In this document: positions 3,492-59,735 of the stretch, one piece after another
How the letters are laid out: each line of letters begins with the position of its first letter
Position numbering within the stretch: position 1 is the stretch's first letter
Assembly: GCA_965222115.1 (NCBI GenBank)
Contig: CBDCTJ010000007.1
Location: 2,304,001-2,368,000, forward strand
From: Planctomycetota bacterium
Lineage (GTDB): Bacteria > Planctomycetota > PLA2 > JAEUHO01
DNA: 64,000 nucleotides
Reading direction: 5' to 3'
The notes under the pieces: generated by a model
Database searches by the model: none
Seen by the model: the letters and a program-made list of their open reading frames with translations, nothing else
What the model was told of the DNA's origin: nothing
Program-made: the position numbers and the translations under genes

Positions 3492-5312
3492 ATGCCACAC
3501 TTCGAGGAGACTCGCGTGACGCGTCATCTATTTGTTTCGATACTTGTACTTGGCTCCTTGCTTGCACTTCCTGGTGAACTTGCAGAACGCGCACACGCCG
3601 AAGAAGGCGACGAGAAGACCACCAGTGAGCTCACGCTAACAACAGACCGCGTGGTGGTCTTCAAGGATGGCTACAGCCTCTTCGTTCGTCGCGGTACGGC
3701 GACAGCCGATGAGCATGGCGATGTTCATACGTTTGAGGTTCCCGATGCCGCGGTGCTCGGAACGTTCTGGGCATTCTCCGCTGATGCAAAACTGTTGGGT
3801 ATGAAGGCGGAAGTCGTCACCACAAAGTTGGAGAACACGGAGACGTCCCGCGCCGTCTCGATGGTTGATCTTCTGCGTGCTAATCAGGGGAATTCGATCA
3901 CCTTACGATTCGATCAAGATAAGAGCGTGACGGGAATCATTGCCGAGGTCTTGGACCGCGCCGTACGAACTCAGCCCGAGCGACTACGCCGTCTGCAACC
4001 GCCATCCCAGCCGTCACCAACTGTCAGTGAGCGCGAGATTCACACGGAGGGAGGTCAGTTTGTGCGCTTACGCGAAACACCCCGCGGCGAGTTGGTGTTG
4101 CCCGTAGCATCGATCCGCACAATCTCCGCAGCGAGATTGAAGGTCGAGTCCAAGCGTGTCTTTGAGTCCAACGTTGCGCGCAAGCGTCTCACGGTAGCGT
4201 TGGGAAGCGATGCGGCCGGCAAAGACGTTACGGTGCGGCTGCTCTACTTTGCGCCGGGCCTACGGTGGATTCCCAGTTATCGGGTTTCGGGTGAACTCAA
4301 AGACGAGGCGAACCTCGCACTTCAAGGCGAGGTGCTCAATGAGGCGCTAGATCTTGAGGACGTGGCGTTGGATCTCGTTGTTGGTGTGCCCCACTTCAAG
4401 TTCCGCGAGACCGTTTCGCCCCTAAGCCTTGAAACTCACCTTCGCAACGCCTTGCAACGCGCGGCGCCACAGCTCATGGGTCAGATGGCGAGCAATATGT
4501 CGCACACACAATTCCGCACACGCGCGGGCGAGGTTCATGTACCGCGTTCCACAACGACGATGGACATTGCACCGGAACTTGCGTCGGGTGGCAGCAACGA
4601 CCTCTTCGTGTATTCGATTCCCAAACTCAGTTTGACGCGCGGCGGTCGGGCAACCATTCCGCTATGGCAACAGAATGTGCCCCTGCGTCATTTGTATACC
4701 CTCGACATATCCCTGGGGCGCGACGCCCGCGGCGGCAAGACATTTGTGCGCGGAGGCCAAGTCTCCGGGCGCGGTCGCACGACGGGCGACACACCGATCG
4801 ACACCGCCAATCACGTGGTTTGGCACCAACTTGAGCTTAGCAATCAGAGTGATGTGCCCTGGACCACCGGCCCCGCACTCACCATGCGCGGCTTGCTACC
4901 GCTTGGCCAAGACATGTTGACCTACACGTCGGTGGGGGAGAAATCGCTTCTGCCCCTCACTGTCGCCATCGACGTGCGTGCCGACTACACCGAGGAAGAG
5001 GTCAATCGCGAGGCCAATCAACTCACGTGGAGCGGCAAGAAATACGCCCGCGTAACGAAGCAGGCCACAGTAAAGATCAAGAACTTCCGCGGCGAGAACA
5101 CCACGACGCGCATTCGCATAGGCCTTGGTGGTCGCGTGACGACGGTCTCCGACAACGCCAAACACGTCGTCAACGACTTCCGCAGTAGTGATTGGACCCG
5201 CTCCGGCTACGCCACCCGCGTCAACAATCATAGCGATATCGAGTGGACCATCGACCTCACCGCCGGCGAGACCAAGGAGCTGACGTTTACTTATGAGTTT
5301 TACGTCCGCTGA
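3492..5312 (+). CDS. DUF4139-like secreted protein
   Basis: Signal peptide, VVVFKDG N-terminus, LRWIPSYRV, LDLVVGVPHF, C-terminal LTAGETKELTFTY. Start may be GTG 3516. Confidence 0.6.
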   Translation: MPHFEETRVTRHLFVSILVLGSLLALPGELAERAHAEEGDEKTTSELTLTTDRVVVFKDGYSLFVRRGTATADEHGDVHTFEVPDAAVLGTFWAFSADAKLLGMKAEVVTTKLENTETSRAVSMVDLLRANQGNSITLRFDQDKSVTGIIAEVLDRAVRTQPERLRRLQPPSQPSPTVSEREIHTEGGQFVRLRETPRGELVLPVASIRTISAARLKVESKRVFESNVARKRLTVALGSDAAGKDVTVRLLYFAPGLRWIPSYRVSGELKDEANLALQGEVLNEALDLEDVALDLVVGVPHFKFRETVSPLSLETHLRNALQRAAPQLMGQMASNMSHTQFRTRAGEVHVPRSTTTMDIAPELASGGSNDLFVYSIPKLSLTRGGRATIPLWQQNVPLRHLYTLDISLGRDARGGKTFVRGGQVSGRGRTTGDTPIDTANHVVWHQLELSNQSDVPWTTGPALTMRGLLPLGQDMLTYTSVGEKSLLPLTVAIDVRADYTEEEVNREANQLTWSGKKYARVTKQATVKIKNFRGENTTTRIRIGLGGRVTTVSDNAKHVVNDFRSSDWTRSGYATRVNNHSDIEWTIDLTAGETKELTFTYEFYVR

Positions 5313-53977: not shown

Positions 53978-55573
53978 GTGGACCTACAGCTCAACGCAAC
54001 CGCGGTCAAGGGTCTCTCGGCGGTTCATATGAACCTCAGTCGTCCCGAGCTCTACGAGGCCATTGTGACGCGTGGCGAGGCGCAGCTGGCCAAGGGCGGC
54101 GCGATTGCCGCCACGACCGGTGAATACACGGGACGATCCCCCAAAGACAAATACATCGTGTCCACGTCAACCACGGAAAACGTCATTTGGTGGGACGGCA
54201 AAGAAGCGCATCGATTTACTCGCGAGCAATTCGATGCACTTCATAGAAAACAACTCGACTACCTCAAGGGCAAAGAACTTTTCGTGCGTGATTGCTACGC
54301 TGGCGCAGGTGAACAGAATCAAATGCGCGTACGTATTGCAACGGAGCGCGCGTGGCACAACTTGTTTGCGCACAACATGTTTCGGCGAGTGAACGACGCA
54401 GACGTCCTCAAGAATTGGGAGCCTGAGTTTTCGGTGCTTCAGACCCCCGGATTTTCCGCCACGCCCGACGCCGACGACACGCGCTCCGAGGTGTTTGTTG
54501 CGCTCGACTTGGAGCGCCGCCTCGTCATGATCGGCGGCACGCGCTATGCGGGCGAAATCAAGAAGTCGATCTTTACGGCGCTCAATTACCTATTGCCCCT
54601 GAAGGGCGTACTGGGTATGCACTGCTCGGCTAACACGGGAGCCAATGGCGATAGTGCCGTGTTCTTTGGGTTATCGGGCACAGGAAAAACAACGCTCTCG
54701 GCCGATGCATCGCGCGAGTTGATTGGTGATGACGAGCACGGGTGGAGCGATCAGGGCATCTTCAATTTCGAAGGCGGTTGCTACGCCAAAGTGATTCGAT
54801 TGTCACAAGAAGCCGAGCCCGAGATCCATCGCACCACGGGCATGTTCGGCACCATCCTCGAGAACGTTCCGTTCTTCCGAGGCACGCGCATTCCCAACCT
54901 TGACGACGATTCGCTCACCGAGAATACGCGCGCGTCCTATCCGCTGGAGAGCATCGACAACATCGTTGAGTCGGGCACGGGCGGGCACCCCAAGCATGTC
55001 ATTATGCTCACCTGCGATGCGTTTGGCGTGTTGCCACCCGTGGCCATGCTCTCGCCGGAACAGGCGATGTATCACTTCATAAGCGGGTACACGGCCAAAG
55101 TCGCGGGTACCGAGCGGGGCGTCACGGAACCCAAAGCCACGTTCTCCGCATGCTTTGGCGCGCCCTTCATGCCGCTACATCCCGGTCGTTATGCCGAACT
55201 CCTAGGTAAGAAGATCGAAGAACACGGTACCCGTTGCTGGCTGCTCAATACCGGCTGGAGTGGGGGCGCCTATGGCGTTGGATCCCGCATGCCCATACGC
55301 TATTCGCGTGCGCTTTTGAATGCCGCCCTCGCGGGCACCCTCAACGATGTCGAGATGCGCGTCGATCCCACCTTCGGGGTGTCGGTGCCGGTGTCGTGCC
55401 CCGGCGTCCCGGATGAAATCCTCGATCCGCGTAGCGTGTGGGACGACACGTCCGCCTACGACGAAAGGGCCGCCAAGTTGGCGCAGATGTTTCACGAGAA
55501 CTTCAAAGCCTTTGAGGACGGCGTCACGCCTGCAATCCGCAAAGCGGGCCCGCGGGTGGGGGCGGCGGTGTAG
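53978..55573 (+). CDS. pckA: Phosphoenolpyruvate carboxykinase (ATP)
   Basis: TGRSPKDK, YAGEIKK, MHCSAN, GLSGTGKTTLS, LIGDDEHGW, NTGWSGG. Confidence 0.95.
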   Translation: MDLQLNATAVKGLSAVHMNLSRPELYEAIVTRGEAQLAKGGAIAATTGEYTGRSPKDKYIVSTSTTENVIWWDGKEAHRFTREQFDALHRKQLDYLKGKELFVRDCYAGAGEQNQMRVRIATERAWHNLFAHNMFRRVNDADVLKNWEPEFSVLQTPGFSATPDADDTRSEVFVALDLERRLVMIGGTRYAGEIKKSIFTALNYLLPLKGVLGMHCSANTGANGDSAVFFGLSGTGKTTLSADASRELIGDDEHGWSDQGIFNFEGGCYAKVIRLSQEAEPEIHRTTGMFGTILENVPFFRGTRIPNLDDDSLTENTRASYPLESIDNIVESGTGGHPKHVIMLTCDAFGVLPPVAMLSPEQAMYHFISGYTAKVAGTERGVTEPKATFSACFGAPFMPLHPGRYAELLGKKIEEHGTRCWLLNTGWSGGAYGVGSRMPIRYSRALLNAALAGTLNDVEMRVDPTFGVSVPVSCPGVPDEILDPRSVWDDTSAYDERAAKLAQMFHENFKAFEDGVTPAIRKAGPRVGAAV

Positions 55574-55627
55574 CTCGGATCCTTCCGCCGCAATCCGACT
55601 ATTGAATCGCCGAGCGCCGAATTAGCG

Positions 55628-55690
55628 CTTCGCGACCTCGACCGCGTTCGCGCGATGTTGAACGCGCTCGTCCGCCGCTGGAGGGCGTGA
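55628..55690 (+). pseudogene. 3' remnant of a type A four-helix-bundle gene
   Basis: Translates LRDLDRVRAMLNALVRRWRA*, near-identical to the C-termini at 12199 and 42404. Confidence 0.8.
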
Positions 55691-55764
55691 GGCACTCTCA
55701 TTCATTCAGCGATTCTCGAAATTTGGTGCCAGGCGCAGATTGCGTGTGTCATCCAGTAGCGCAC

Positions 55765-55822
55765 TCCCGTTACCCGAAACCCGTTACCCGTTACCCGACA
55801 CCCGCAACCCGTTACCCGGACT
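55765..55822 (+). repeat. Modular motif copy H, left half (heptamer tract), split by the IS
   Basis: (CCCGTTA)n-like tract ending GTTACCCGGA-CT. Confidence 0.85.
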
Positions 55823-56791
55823 TCTATGAAAGGGCCTGGCATGTCAAGTGCGAAGCCGCGTCGGCGAGCGCATTTACCGCGTTGTGCATGTGTAGTTCGG
55901 CCCCTTGAGTGCGCAACTTACCCTTACCGCCCTTGCCTTTTTGGCAGCGGATCGGGGCGAATCAGATTGCCAGTCATCGTCTCTGGCGCCAGAAAACACG
56001 TCCCATTCAGGCTTCTATGCGCACTCGTGTTGGATCGAAGTTGATGCGACCCGGTGCAAGGTGGGGTCCGAGAACGAGTCTGGGTGCTGCATACTCAGTA
56101 GCGACGTCGCTATACGTCGGTCAGGGCACCGCAGTCACCCGGACTTCTATGAAAGGGCCTGGCATGTCAAGTGCGAAGCCGCGTCGGCGAGCGCATTTAC
56201 CGCGTTGTGCATGTGTAGTTCGGCCCCTTGAGTGCGCAACTTACCCTTACCGCCCTTGCCTTTTTGGCAGCGGATCGGGGCGAATCAGATTGCCAGTCAT
56301 CGTCTCTGGCGCCAGAAAACACGTCCCATTCAGGCTTCTATGCGCACTCGTGTTGGATCGAAGTTGATGCGACCCGGTGCAAGGTGGGGTCCGAGAACGA
56401 GTCTGGGTGCTGCATACTCAGTAGCGACGTCGCTATACGTCGGTCAGGGCACCGCAGTCACCCGGACTTCTATGAAAGGGCCTGGCATGTCAAGTGCGAA
56501 GCCGCGTCGGCGAGCGCATTTACCGCGTTGTGCATGTGTAGTTCGGCCCCTTGAGTGCGCAACTTACCCTTACCGCCCTTGCCTTTTTGGCAGCGGATCG
56601 GGGCGAATCAGATTGCCAGTCATCGTCTCTGGCGCCAGAAAACACGTCCCATTCAGGCTTCTATGCGCACTCGTGTTGGATCGAAGTTGATGCGACCCGG
56701 TGCAAGGTGGGGTCCGAGAACGAGTCTGGGTGCTGCATACTCAGTAGCGACGTCGCTATACGTCGGTCAGGGCACCGCAGTCACCCGGACT
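55823..56791. repeat. Three tandem 323-bp copies of the IS right-end non-coding region
   Basis: Units 55823-56145, 56146-56468, 56469-56791; they appear identical (identical spurious ORFs in the track). Confidence 0.92.
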
Positions 56792-56852
56792 CGAATTGGG
56801 GTACGTGGAAACTGACCTTATCTAATGCTTGCCTAAAGCTGTTGCGCGAGGT
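56469..56852 (-). ncRNA. Putative bridge/seek RNA region of the IS1111-type element
   Basis: Inferred from position (non-coding region 3' of the IS1111 transposase) and short matches to target and donor junction; boundaries unknown. Confidence 0.5.
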
Positions 56853-57902
56853 TCAGGCGGCCACTGGGCATCGAACCGGTATGTACTCTTCGCCTGTTCG
56901 CCACAGCGCAAGCATGAGCACGGAGAGCTTGCGTGCCACGGCGATGACTGCCTTGCGTTTCGCAACTGCGCCTCCACGCGCAATGATCCGCTCACCGTGG
57001 GACTTTAGATCGCATGGCGGGCCCAGTCGCCCGAGGATGTGATGCGCGCACTGAACGAGCAACGACCGAACCATACGGTCCCCAGCCTTCGTTATGCGTA
57101 GCTGCTTGTCCATTTGGCCGGATTGATCACGCCGTGGAACCATCCCGAGAAACGCCCCGACATCTCGGCGGTCTTCAAACCGCGCCCAATCTTGAACGGT
57201 TAACATGAATGCGAGTGCCGTGAGATTGCCCACGCCTGGAATCTGAGTGAGCAACTGTGTATCTGGATATCGCTCGTTCGCCAACTCATCGATCTTTGCG
57301 TCGTAGATCTTTACCAACTCAGTGATTCGCTCGATTGCACCGAGAAGGGGACTAAGCACATCGTAGAGCTCCTCCGGAATCTCGGCCCGCGTCTTCGTTC
57401 CGATGCATTTTGATGCCTGCTTACGCAACCGCCCGCCCATGCTCTTAATGACGCCTCGTAGCGAGTTCACCAACTTGGTTCGTGACGACACAAGCGCGGC
57501 TCGTGCACGAATCAGCGCAAGGTCTCGTTGTGCGGACTCCGGTCGATGCCGAATTGGGGCAAGTAGTTGGGGATCGAAGCGACCGATTTCAGCCAACTTC
57601 TTGGCATCCGTTCGATCGGACTTGCGAGTGTTCCTGTAAATAAAGCTTAGCTCTCGCGGATTCGCGACTAGCGACTGAGCACATCGACCTTCGACGACCC
57701 GACTCGCCCAAGGCGAATGCGTTCCCGCCTCCATCACAACTCGAGCGGTTCGGTGCTTCGATAGAAACTCGTGAAACGATTCGCGCGTTGTCGCTATCTC
57801 GCCTTCTTCCTTCTGAACCCCCGTGTCTTGATCTAAGACGCAATACCAAGAGAATCGGTCGCCTAAGTCGATGCCAATCGTTTCGGTGATACGCTTATGC
57901 AT
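56853..57902 (-). CDS. IS110 family transposase/recombinase
   Basis: GIDLG, VMEAG, KSDRTDA (DEDD); IPGVG, LGMVPRRDQSG; AGGAGG RBS before ATG 57902. Confidence 0.95.
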   Translation of the reverse strand: MHKRITETIGIDLGDRFSWYCVLDQDTGVQKEEGEIATTRESFHEFLSKHRTARVVMEAGTHSPWASRVVEGRCAQSLVANPRELSFIYRNTRKSDRTDAKKLAEIGRFDPQLLAPIRHRPESAQRDLALIRARAALVSSRTKLVNSLRGVIKSMGGRLRKQASKCIGTKTRAEIPEELYDVLSPLLGAIERITELVKIYDAKIDELANERYPDTQLLTQIPGVGNLTALAFMLTVQDWARFEDRRDVGAFLGMVPRRDQSGQMDKQLRITKAGDRMVRSLLVQCAHHILGRLGPPCDLKSHGERIIARGGAVAKRKAVIAVARKLSVLMLALWRTGEEYIPVRCPVAA

Positions 57903-57999
57903 GCTGGTAGCTCCTCCTGGGCCGTAGAGCCCGCTTATTGTTTGCAGCACGGTTTACCGTGACTGCGCGACAGAGGAGCTACCGGCCTTTTCATCCCAT

Positions 58000-58098
58000 C
58001 TCAAGTGTGAGCGTCCGATAGTCGATTCACGCCAGCTCGTGGACGTGGACGTGGACGTGGACGTGGACGTGGACGTGGACGTGGACGTGGACGTGGAC
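58000..58098 (+). repeat. Modular motif copy H, right half with (GTGGAC)10
   Basis: CTCAAGTGTGAGCGTCCGATAGTCGATTCACGCCAGCTC, GTGGAC x10 at 58039-58098; continues the left half as in copy G. Confidence 0.9.
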
Positions 58099-58247
58099 GT
58101 CGGAGGCCAAGGGTGGAGCCCTTGAGCCGGAGACCGCTCTCAGCTCCCTTCATGTGAGCAATTCAGCGGCGTGCCGCCACGCAACGTGCCCAGCAGCCAC
58201 CGAATCACGCCCCGAAACGTTTGGGCTCTGCGTCGTTGTGTGACGTA

Positions 58248-59735
58248 CTACCCAGTCAAACTCGGCTTGGCACCAAGGCTCACACCCACGCTCGACTTGT
58301 CAAAGCGCACGTACTCCCATGCGAACTCGTTGCCGTTGATGCCCTTGCGGGGCGGGGCGATCCAACTGGCGATCTTACCGACCTCGAAGACGGGTGTCAT
58401 GAGGCTCTTGACATAGGCCTGGTCACTGCTGCCGGGGAGCCATGCGTCGCGGTTTTTGTTGAACTCGTCCTCGGTGACGGGCTCGCCTTTGGGATCGAAA
58501 TGGCCTGCGCTGTAGATGCCCATGTTGCGGTGGAAGCGGCGGTGGGGGAGCTCGAATCGGAAGTCAATCTTCTCCTTCTCAAGGATTCGATTCCAACGGC
58601 CCACGACAAATACGCAGTCGCCAATGTAGCCGTCGCGCAGCACTTCATTCATGGCGTTGCGCAGCGGTACCTGCTCCGTGGTCAGCGACACCTTGGTGCC
58701 GCCATTCTTGGTAGGGACTTGCATCTCGTAGGCGCCTTCCAATGCCTTATGGTCTTCGTACTTTGATTCTTTGTAGCGACCCTTGAGGCCATTGGCGAAG
58801 TACACGGATGCGTTGTTGCTGATCTCGCCGCCAAAGAGATTGACCGAAGAACTAAACCAACGATTGATGTAGCGCTGAATGGTCGGCAAATCGATCACGC
58901 CCTGCTGGCGCAGCTTCTCGGGATCGTCGGTCTTGAGTTCATTCATGGCTTCTGCGGTGCGTTGAATCACACGTCCCACGCCCGTCTCGCCCACAAACAT
59001 GTGGTGGGCCTCCTCGGTGAGCATGAATTGCGTGGTGCGGGCAAGGGGGTCTAGGCCCGATTCGGAGAGCGCAAGCAATTGGAACTTGCCGTCGCGGTCG
59101 GTAAACGTCGTAAACATGAAGAACGAGAGCCAGTCTTCCACCGGCTCATTAAACGTGCCCAGGATGCGCGGCGAATCTTCGTGACCGCTACGGCGCCGCA
59201 AGAGATCGTCGGCCTCTTCACGACCATCACGTCCAAAGTGCGTGTGAAGCAGGTACACCATGGCCCACAAGTGTCGCCCTTCTTCAACATTCACCTGAAA
59301 GAGGTTGCGCAAGTCATACAAACTCGGCGCGGTCTGCCCCAAGAGACGCTGCTGTTCGACGCTGGCCGGTTCCGTATCGGCTTGTGTCACAATGATGCGA
59401 CGGAGCGCATTCCGGTATTCGCCGGGAACCTTCTGCCACGCGGGTTGACCCGCGAAATCACCGCAAGGAATCGTGCGGTCCACCTCCTGGGGCTGTAGGA
59501 AAATGCCCCAGCGATAATCGGGCATTTTGACGTAGCCAAATTGTGCCCATCCATCGCGACCCACGTCGATTGCGGTGCGCAGATAGATGTCATCTGCTTG
59601 GAACCCCTCAGGCCCCATTTCTTTCCACCAATCGACAAAGTGGGGTTGCCACGCCTCAAGGGCGCGCTGCAACCGTCGGTCATCTTTTAGACCAACGTTG
59701 TTGGGAATCTTGGCATTAAGGTCCACATTGCCCAT
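58248..59735 (-). CDS. boxB: Benzoyl-CoA 2,3-epoxidase subunit BoxB
   Basis: KIPNNV.L, YVKMPDYRWGIF, DTEPASVEQQR, NVEEGRHLW, TEEAHH diiron motifs. Confidence 0.93.
   Translation of the reverse strand: MGNVDLNAKIPNNVGLKDDRRLQRALEAWQPHFVDWWKEMGPEGFQADDIYLRTAIDVGRDGWAQFGYVKMPDYRWGIFLQPQEVDRTIPCGDFAGQPAWQKVPGEYRNALRRIIVTQADTEPASVEQQRLLGQTAPSLYDLRNLFQVNVEEGRHLWAMVYLLHTHFGRDGREEADDLLRRRSGHEDSPRILGTFNEPVEDWLSFFMFTTFTDRDGKFQLLALSESGLDPLARTTQFMLTEEAHHMFVGETGVGRVIQRTAEAMNELKTDDPEKLRQQGVIDLPTIQRYINRWFSSSVNLFGGEISNNASVYFANGLKGRYKESKYEDHKALEGAYEMQVPTKNGGTKVSLTTEQVPLRNAMNEVLRDGYIGDCVFVVGRWNRILEKEKIDFRFELPHRRFHRNMGIYSAGHFDPKGEPVTEDEFNKNRDAWLPGSSDQAYVKSLMTPVFEVGKIASWIAPPRKGINGNEFAWEYVRFDKSSVGVSLGAKPSLTG

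Follow-up and report, generated by a model that had tools for sequence, protein, structure and literature searches.

Three tandem copies of a predicted seekRNA gene and right end in an IS1111-type element of a Planctomycetota bacterium

Here we describe a tandem array inside an RNA-guided insertion sequence (IS) found in a 64,000-nt stretch of a Planctomycetota genome (contig CBDCTJ010000007.1; the whole stretch is called the window). The array forms the 3' end of an IS1111-type element of the IS110 family lying on the minus strand, and consists of three 323-bp units arranged head to tail, each holding a complete predicted guide RNA (seekRNA) gene together with the right end of the element. 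One unit boundary is the true right end, whereas the other, which we call site P, is a look-alike of the element's target and coincides with the 5' foot of the predicted seekRNA stem. At about even chances, we favour a one-step exchange by the element's recombinase over slippage as the origin of the array. Sequence comparison shows the anatomy, the guide positions, the AG core, the target-likeness of site P and a second, independent array at a right end, whereas which enzyme acted, in what order, and with what effect on guide RNA dosage is inferred.

The repeated unit and its boundaries

Tandem Repeats Finder reported a repeat of period 323 with 3.0 copies at 55814-56791 (100% matches, 0 indels, score 1956), and direct string comparison found the three 323-bp strings to be letter-identical. 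An initial annotation, made from the letters alone, had already described three identical units at 55823-56791 and an 11/12 match between the unit end and the genomic half of the target, and both descriptions are correct. On the plus strand, a unit starts with TCTATGAAAGGGCC and ends with GTCACCCGGACT, and the genomic flank at 55811-55822 reads GTTACCCGGACT, matching the unit end at 11 of 12 positions. The repeat continues for 9 nt into this flank (ACCCGGACT); when the element was dinucleotide-shuffled 5000 times, 35 shuffles produced a junction-anchored match of at least 9 nt between flank and element (P = 0.007). Read along the element, all units end in ...GGCCCTTTCATAGA-AG, keeping the right-end (left-donor) sequence at the unit boundary.

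The window element, hereafter copy A, interrupts a repeat resembling a repetitive extragenic palindrome (REP). One 24-nt anchor finds 23 copies of this repeat, 22 of them uninterrupted. Of these 22, 12 have GAGTCCGGGT where the insertion would fall, 4 have GAGTCCGGGTGAC and 4 have GAGTCCGGGTAAC. Occupied and empty sites align as ...CACACTTG-AG-[ATGGG...CATAGA]-AG-TCCGGGTAAC, with uninterrupted targets reading ...CACACTTG-AG-TCCGGGT. By this comparison, the core dinucleotide is AG on the element strand (CT on the plus strand), with AG at both junctions; GA was also considered as the core and was rejected, as the uninterrupted copies show AG. Of the related elements, 109 of 114 have AG 6 nt ahead of the left-end motif, and 139 of 166 loci contain the right-end motif CCTTCTCAT(G/A)GA-AG.

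The unit start reads, in context, CAATTCG-AG-TCCGGGTGAC, and every inter-unit junction has the form right end-AG-unit start. Site P ranks top of the 97 AG sites in the element: it alone agrees with the right target half at 9 of 10 positions, and its combined left-plus-right score of 14/20 is neither equalled nor bettered elsewhere. It matches 4 of the 22 uninterrupted REP-like targets over 13 nt (GAGTCCGGGTGAC) and has GAGTCCGGGT in common with 12 of them. The internal junctions do therefore resemble a target/right-end junction, as the initial annotation had proposed, in the form right end, core and target-like right half. By comparison with the left end, the unit start matches at only 5 of 10 positions (three element sites do better and nine, counting P, do equally well), and it has no left-end-like A' box.

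The annotation had also taken the target-like site for the element's own self-target, and here the relatives point elsewhere. In the basal stem of the seekRNA, the 5' strand is conserved as AG-T(T/C)CGGG(T/C)GAC-TGCG, and AG occupies that place in 63 of 105 distinct relatives, whose targets are unrelated; the commonest form of the motif at this position is AGTTCGGGT (21 of the 105). The target-like site is thus not peculiar to this element, and the P motif is not an evolved self-target but the family-conserved 5' foot of the seekRNA stem. The resemblance between P and the flank exists because copy A landed in a REP-like repeat that resembles the foot of its own guide gene. The flank mirrors P (G-AG-TCCGGGTAAC) in copy A only.

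A DNA search within the same order gave five relatives, ~65% identical where BLAST aligned the whole element (L008, L010), and similarity to these five ends at element position 1347. A locus search with the single transposase protein found no related loci; a query built from a five-protein alignment retrieved 80 in genome records and the same number in metagenome contigs. From about 130 related elements, covariation placed the whole seekRNA inside each 323-bp unit, together with the right end. The predicted basal stem (GGGUG-A-CUGC / GCAG-CACCC) shows compensatory changes in 7 of 12 predicted pairs (33 sequences), and both sides of column pair 8-101 have changed in 14 sequences. A single-sequence fold of the window element agrees with the basal stem, the z-score for such a fold of the seekRNA region being an uninformative -0.37, and Rfam gave 0 matches at E up to 1 over 55500-58300.

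Three guides could be placed in this way. The right-target guide is the reverse complement of G plus the right flank and lies directly after the invariant GACTGCG; 60 of 120 loci have an exact match of at least 7 nt, whereas permuted flanks gave one in 84 of 2400 cases. The left-target guide is a same-sense copy of the left flank plus AG, directly before (A/G)T(T/G)GCAGC; here 53 of 94 loci match over at least 6 nt, compared with 51 of 1880 when the flanks are permuted. The donor-end guide is the same as the element's own right end in 126 of 130 distinct non-coding regions (four covarying variants). Across the relatives, the antisense right-target guide comes first from the 5' side and the same-sense left-target guide follows; for IS1111 seekRNAs, the accessible part of PMC11187229 gives a top-strand match 5' of the bottom-strand match. 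Since the stem of the window element begins at the first bases of the unit, each unit would be a complete seekRNA gene plus the right end, and the earlier description of the repeated part as a right-end non-coding region with a guide RNA gene agrees with the predicted stem and guides.

Two other guide candidates were discarded. The motif AGTCCGGGTGAC, tried as a variable target guide, is kept in relatives with other targets, and CACTTGA near the right end, tried as the left-target guide, falls where TTGACA is conserved in the two relatives inspected, L008 and L092.

Origin of the array

In the exchange that we favour, the element's recombinase would exchange the right junction (right end-AG-right target half) with the internal look-alike P (x-AG-right-half mimic), either between sister copies or through a 323-bp circle, and a crossover at AG would add one unit. 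Exchange between sisters would yield the observed junction and a unit-less partner. To gain the third unit, the element would have gone through the same exchange again, or the 323-bp repeats would have recombined unequally by ordinary homologous recombination. In support of this exchange, the core is AG in the REP-like targets and the relatives, the right end closes each of the identical units precisely, no other site in the element is as target-like as P, and the array is confined to copy A, the one copy whose flank matches P; moreover, the compensatory changes in the stem and the permuted controls for the guides identify the unit as a complete guide gene plus right end.

Partial mobilisation at AG sites elsewhere in the same genome also counts in its favour. 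Two solo right-end fragments on contig C1 (602189-602388 and 603923-604122) lack a transposase gene. They share 92% identity with the final 192-201 nt of the element, and they start precisely where the internal CATAGA-AG of the donor-end guide stops. On the left they are flanked by GAGATACCA-AG, which is similar to the left target of a second element copy, copy B (GAGATACCG-AG). To judge from these boundaries, the fragments may be the remainder after joint excision of the left end and an internal pseudo-right-end in guide-encoding DNA. Each fragment is followed by a ~690-bp repeat with 31-bp inverted ends.

The initial annotation had suggested a survey of IS1111 relatives for similar arrays, and one independent array was indeed found. 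It lies in L092, one of the 80 genome-record loci, which belongs to a metagenome-assembled genome of the Acidobacteriaceae and has a transposase 48% identical to that of the window. This locus carries a 155-bp unit repeated 6.0 times at 100% identity at the right end of the element (4027-4960). Each of its units ends in CCTTCTCATAGA-AG, TTATGT-AG precedes the first unit, and the flank reads AG-TGTAATGCC, with only AGTG shared. Four shared nucleotides are too little for slippage, which argues that the right end itself drives such arrays. This unit is without the seekRNA, which sits ~200-370 nt upstream of it, and contains a long perfect hairpin, so that an array of the guide RNA locus, as the annotation had framed it, is not a general rule; nor is a target-like internal site. 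The same genome (loci L107-L109) also holds two single-unit copies and a solo 246-bp fragment. No further array of period at least 100 was found in the 165 related loci scanned; the 80 metagenome loci among them had none, many of their contigs being ~1.3-2.5 kb long and ending close to the element, where an array may not be assembled. In two of the three full copies in the Acidobacteriaceae genome (L092 and L108), the insertion immediately follows the stop codon of a different gene, whose end is conserved. At another locus, L118, the canonical right end is preceded at a distance of 377 nt by a degenerate one (CCTTCTCAGGGA-AG), with unrelated sequence between the two (1597-1993); these are serial right-end modules and not an array.

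Reads bear on the unit number. Four metagenome runs of one study cover the region as contigs, no RNA run being among those listed; they may be the source of the assembly and are hence not independent. In run X1, a 51-nt contig (depth 3.9) lies over an inter-unit junction, with a flank depth of 3.1 and a unit contig depth of 11; allowing for copy B, these values fit two to three units in copy A. In none of the four runs does a contig reach across the array, and the same junction would be expected of a 323-bp circle. Separately, a 1266-nt contig of run X4 joins the element spacer (..CAATTCG-AG-T) exactly at P (window position 56789) to DNA absent from this genome; it could be a unit-less reciprocal product or a variant element in another strain.

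Several observations weigh against recombinase exchange. The depth check that the annotation had suggested came out divided: X1 depth and its junction contig fit two to three units, but in run X3, from the same sample as X1, the A/B-type unit has depth 7.1 against a flank depth of 3.8, which fits about one unit, and there is no junction contig. The unit number is thus without independent confirmation, the depths of X1 and X3 being in disagreement. The predicted guides fit the flank of copy A imperfectly and the left side of P poorly. With the register taken from L009, the closest relative with a clear match, and with counts made by hand, the right-target guide GTGCCCTGA-C predicts G-TCAGGGCAC; the flank of copy A (G-TCCGGGTAA) agrees at 7 of 9 positions counting one G-T wobble, a fit that could be chance at a few per cent by our own estimate, and site P at 5 of 9, with two wobbles besides. 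For the left-target guide CTACTG-AG, the targets of copy B and of a third copy, copy C, agree at 5 of 6 positions, that of copy A at 3 of 6, and the left side of P at only 1 of 6. These guide-to-site fits are too weak to decide the mechanism. The L092 internal site is neither target-like (rank 12-25 of 165) nor left-end-like, so a rule for the choice of the second site is not established, and arrays remain rare, at 1 of 80 genome loci, despite a P-like AG motif in 63 of the 105 relatives. Finally, slippage and recombinase action give the same product, so that no sequence feature discriminates between them.

Indeed, a possible, if less probable, origin needs no recombinase: slippage or short-homology recombination at the 9-bp direct repeat AGTCCGGGT (11/12 over 12 nt) that flanks the module, with unequal crossing-over adding the third unit. 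The 9-bp repeat exists, the phase of the array is ambiguous over exactly these 9 nt, the array is present only in the copy that has the repeat, and 100% unit identity is expected of a recent homologous expansion; the repeat is moreover explained without selection, as a conserved RNA-stem motif that met a look-alike REP. However, 9 bp is short for efficient slippage over 323 bp, and the L092 array ends exactly at the right end despite sharing only AGTG with its flank. The accessible part of a 2026 preprint (bioRxiv 10.64898/2026.08.14.744561) also reports that unit boundaries are enriched for donor-end matches relative to shuffles. The two-step routes put forward in the initial annotation appear unlikely. 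In one, a full circle would insert into P, giving body-body-unit-unit, and one body would then be lost by homologous deletion; in the other, a 323-bp mini-circle would re-enter through the recombinase or RecA. They can draw on P being the best target-like site in the element, on an inter-unit junction identical to that of a mini-circle, on C1 fragments of the form expected after sub-element excision, and on ISPpu9, for which sub-element circles and their re-insertion are documented in the accessible part of PMC12288879. Against them, they take more steps than a single unequal exchange, the genome has no nested or dimeric element body, the left half of P fits the left-target guide at 1 of 6, and the read contigs give no direct sign of circles.

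It is highly improbable that the array is an assembly artefact, that is, a chromosome with one or two units and extras derived from mis-assembly or from reads of a circular or concatemeric module. The perfect identity of the units, the lack of a contig across the array in the four runs, the X3 depths and the chance that junction words derive from circles would all suit such an error. On the other side stand a 3.07-Mb contig that carries the array between unique flanks, an X1 junction contig near single-copy depth (3.9 against 3.1) beside a unit contig at 11, and the same kind of array in the independent assembly of another organism (L092).

Recombinase exchange might also have consequences for the element, and we regard it as doubtful that the array is anything other than a neutral by-product. 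If it were, the recombinase would use the foot of its own guide gene as a half-site, and elements landing in look-alike repeats would amplify complete guide genes and raise seekRNA dosage per transcript. Units of such a multi-guide locus could then diverge and retarget the element, making a primitive guide array that the guided enzyme had itself built. More broadly, guide and scaffold DNA would mimic the substrates of the enzyme and so serve as built-in secondary ends (P for the array, the donor-end guide for the C1 fragments).

The element and its sister copies

The ends of the element were set against two sister copies in the same genome and the uninterrupted REP-like targets (Table 1). Its single-unit form, body plus one core, measures 1532 bp, where the initial annotation had given 1533 bp. 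Pfam assigns the transposase the domains DEDD_Tnp_IS110 (PF01548, E = 2.6e-18) and Transposase_20 (PF02371, E = 4.4e-22), and it scores 220.6 bits against the NCBIfam model NF033542, 'IS110 family RNA-guided transposase' (cut-off 140). It also weakly matches the solved ISCro4 and IS621 chains. A sigma-70 promoter scan found 0 sites, and there is therefore no evidence for a promoter made by the unit junction; the TTGACA of the right end is presumably a -35-like element. The GMVPRRDQSG of the translation corresponds to the C-terminal G--P----S/T-G motif of the IS110 family (PMC11187229, accessible part). In the single-unit form, the non-coding region downstream of the transposase gene is 384 nt long, compared with ~100 nt upstream. 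Together with subterminal inverted repeats and the predicted seekRNA guide order, this longer downstream region makes the element IS1111-type by the features given in the accessible part of PMC11187229; the assignment had already been made in the initial annotation, and the Pfam and NCBIfam matches and the inverted repeats agree with it.

Table 1. Features of the element and its target, with window coordinates
Feature	Position	Strand	Basis
Whole IS1111-type element, including both AG core copies	55821..58001	-	ends set against copies B and C and uninterrupted REP-like targets
Transposase gene, 349 aa, intact	56853..57902	-	Pfam, NCBIfam, motif
61-nt unrepeated spacer, stop codon to first unit	56792..56852	-	open reading frame position, comparison with copies B and C
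Unit 1, nearest the transposase gene: predicted seekRNA gene + right end	56469..56791	-	string identity, Tandem Repeats Finder
Unit 2, same sequence as unit 1	56146..56468	-	string identity, Tandem Repeats Finder
Unit 3, same sequence as unit 1; touches genomic flank	55823..56145	-	string identity, Tandem Repeats Finder
Site P, G-AG-TCCGGGTGAC: target look-alike + 5' foot of predicted seekRNA stem	56780..56792	-	AG-site scoring, REP comparison, relatives
Predicted seekRNA target-binding stem-loop	56723..56791; also 56400-56468, 56077-56145	-	covariation
Predicted right-target guide zone GTGCCCTGACC, antisense to right flank	56765..56775; also 56442-56452, 56119-56129	-	covariation
Predicted left-target guide CTACTG-AG, same sense as left flank + core	56740..56747; also 56417-56424, 56094-56101	-	covariation
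Predicted donor-end guide GCATAGA-AG-CC, same sense as right end + core	56656..56666; also 56333-56343, 56010-56020	-	covariation
Left subterminal inverted repeat ATGAAAAGGCC	57984..57994	-	reverse complement of right-end repeat GGCC(C/T)TTTCAT
Right end: conserved TTGACA (55842-55847) + subterminal repeat GGCCCTTTCAT (55826-55836); recurs at every unit end	55826..55847	-	relatives, sequence check
Left core AG (CT on +)	58000..58001	-	uninterrupted targets; 109/114 relatives
Right core AG	55821..55822	-	right-end motif in 139/166 loci
Left half of interrupted REP-like element, with (CGTGGA)10 at 58038-58100	58002..58105	-	repeat finding, REP comparison
Right half of REP-like element: TCCGGGTAAC, then heptamer repeats	55766..55820	-	repeat finding, REP comparison

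BLAST in the same genome found the sister copies B (C7:506880-508415) and C (C3:484746-486286), each ~98.4% identical. The annotation had proposed comparing unit number between copies, and the comparison gave one unit each in B and C against three in copy A. Both sister copies are inserted in a second repeated sequence (..AAAATCCACAC(A/T)TTTC; C7:506760-506880, C3:486287-486400) without resemblance to the unit start. Compared with that of copy A, their left targets, ATACCG-AG and ATACGG-AG, are closer to the left-target guide, and the REP-like site of copy A may thus be a less typical target than the repeat holding copies B and C.

The REP-like family is built of (CGTGGA)n, a conserved ~40-nt core ending CTCACACTTG-AG-TCCGGGT, and heptamers (RACGGGT)n. 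Its copies lie mostly in C7 at 2.27-2.94 Mb, and in the window they also occur near 11.5k, 12.3k, 41.2k, 47.0k and 47.8k. The heptamer resembles CGGGTGAC of the seekRNA stem foot. On the plus strand at 55905-57042, open reading frames of 108-163 aa recurring at the 323-bp period are by-products of the repeat, with no sign of protein coding.

Comparison with known systems

Bridge- and seekRNA recombinases are under development as genome-writing tools, for which off-pathway reactions matter. The covariation map of right-target, left-target and donor-end guides, drawn here for a widespread soil-bacterial IS1111 subfamily, would permit target prediction for well over a hundred elements. As far as the accessible parts of the sources go, the closest described IS1111-type elements are similar in plan: ISEc11, ISPa11 and ISKpn4 (PMC11187229) likewise have the non-coding region downstream, subterminal inverted repeats and REP-type targets, and their guide order, a top-strand-complementary guide 5' of a bottom-strand one, is also found here. 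They carry one seekRNA gene each, however, and the window transposase is a distant relative, though no search was aimed at closer homologues among named elements. Literature searches found no report of tandem seekRNA genes.

ISPpu9, for which transposase-dependent sub-element circles are described (PMC12288879), offers a further parallel. Like the window element, ISPpu9-ssr9 is an IS110-family element in a REP with an AG crossover and a small-RNA module downstream of the transposase gene; the module circularises alone, and solo module copies lie elsewhere in the genome, as on C1 here. In contrast, ssr9 has its own left-end-like A' box, whereas the unit start in the window is not left-end-like (5/10). 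Ssr9 is dispensable for transposition, and no tandem array is reported for ISPpu9 in the accessible part of that article. For CazIS110-1, head-to-tail cargo repeats arose as an excision by-product in 3 of 96 colonies (bioRxiv 10.1101/2025.10.25.684509, accessible part). There, the whole element or cargo was repeated through both true ends and the repeats reverted, whereas in the window a sub-element segment is repeated through one true end and one internal site. By analogy, the proposed exchange may be seen as a sub-element version of the CazIS110-1 repeats and ISPpu9 circles.

The nearest precedent is the 2026 preprint (10.64898/2026.08.14.744561), the accessible part of which describes tandem non-coding units at 468 IS110 loci, with matches to the left donor alone at the unit boundaries; it credits these units to the resident recombinase acting on half-matches and leaves the other boundary undefined. 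The preprint counts as expansions at least two adjacent same-strand units of at least 50 bp and at least 95% identity that adjoin the transposase gene, and the window has three of 323 bp at 100%, 61 nt past the stop codon. As in the preprint's arrays, these are perfect or near-perfect head-to-tail units by the transposase gene, with only the left-donor (right-end) sequence kept at the unit boundaries. The array phenomenon announced in the initial annotation is thus real here but not new in kind. Unlike what is described for the preprint's arrays, the other boundary in the window is a 13-nt look-alike of the target core plus right half, and the unit is exactly the whole guide gene plus end. The words IS1111 and seekRNA are absent from the main text of the preprint, and its 468 arrays may include IS1111-type cases or target-like boundaries. 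New here, within a kind already known from that preprint, are therefore the IS1111-type example, a unit that is a whole guide gene, and an explanation of the second boundary, namely that the foot of that gene mimics a target half-site. The expansion phenomenon is thereby extended to an IS1111-type element in which a complete guide gene is amplified, and the second boundary left open by the 2026 survey is defined in this case, giving a testable rule of half-site mimicry by the element's own guide locus.

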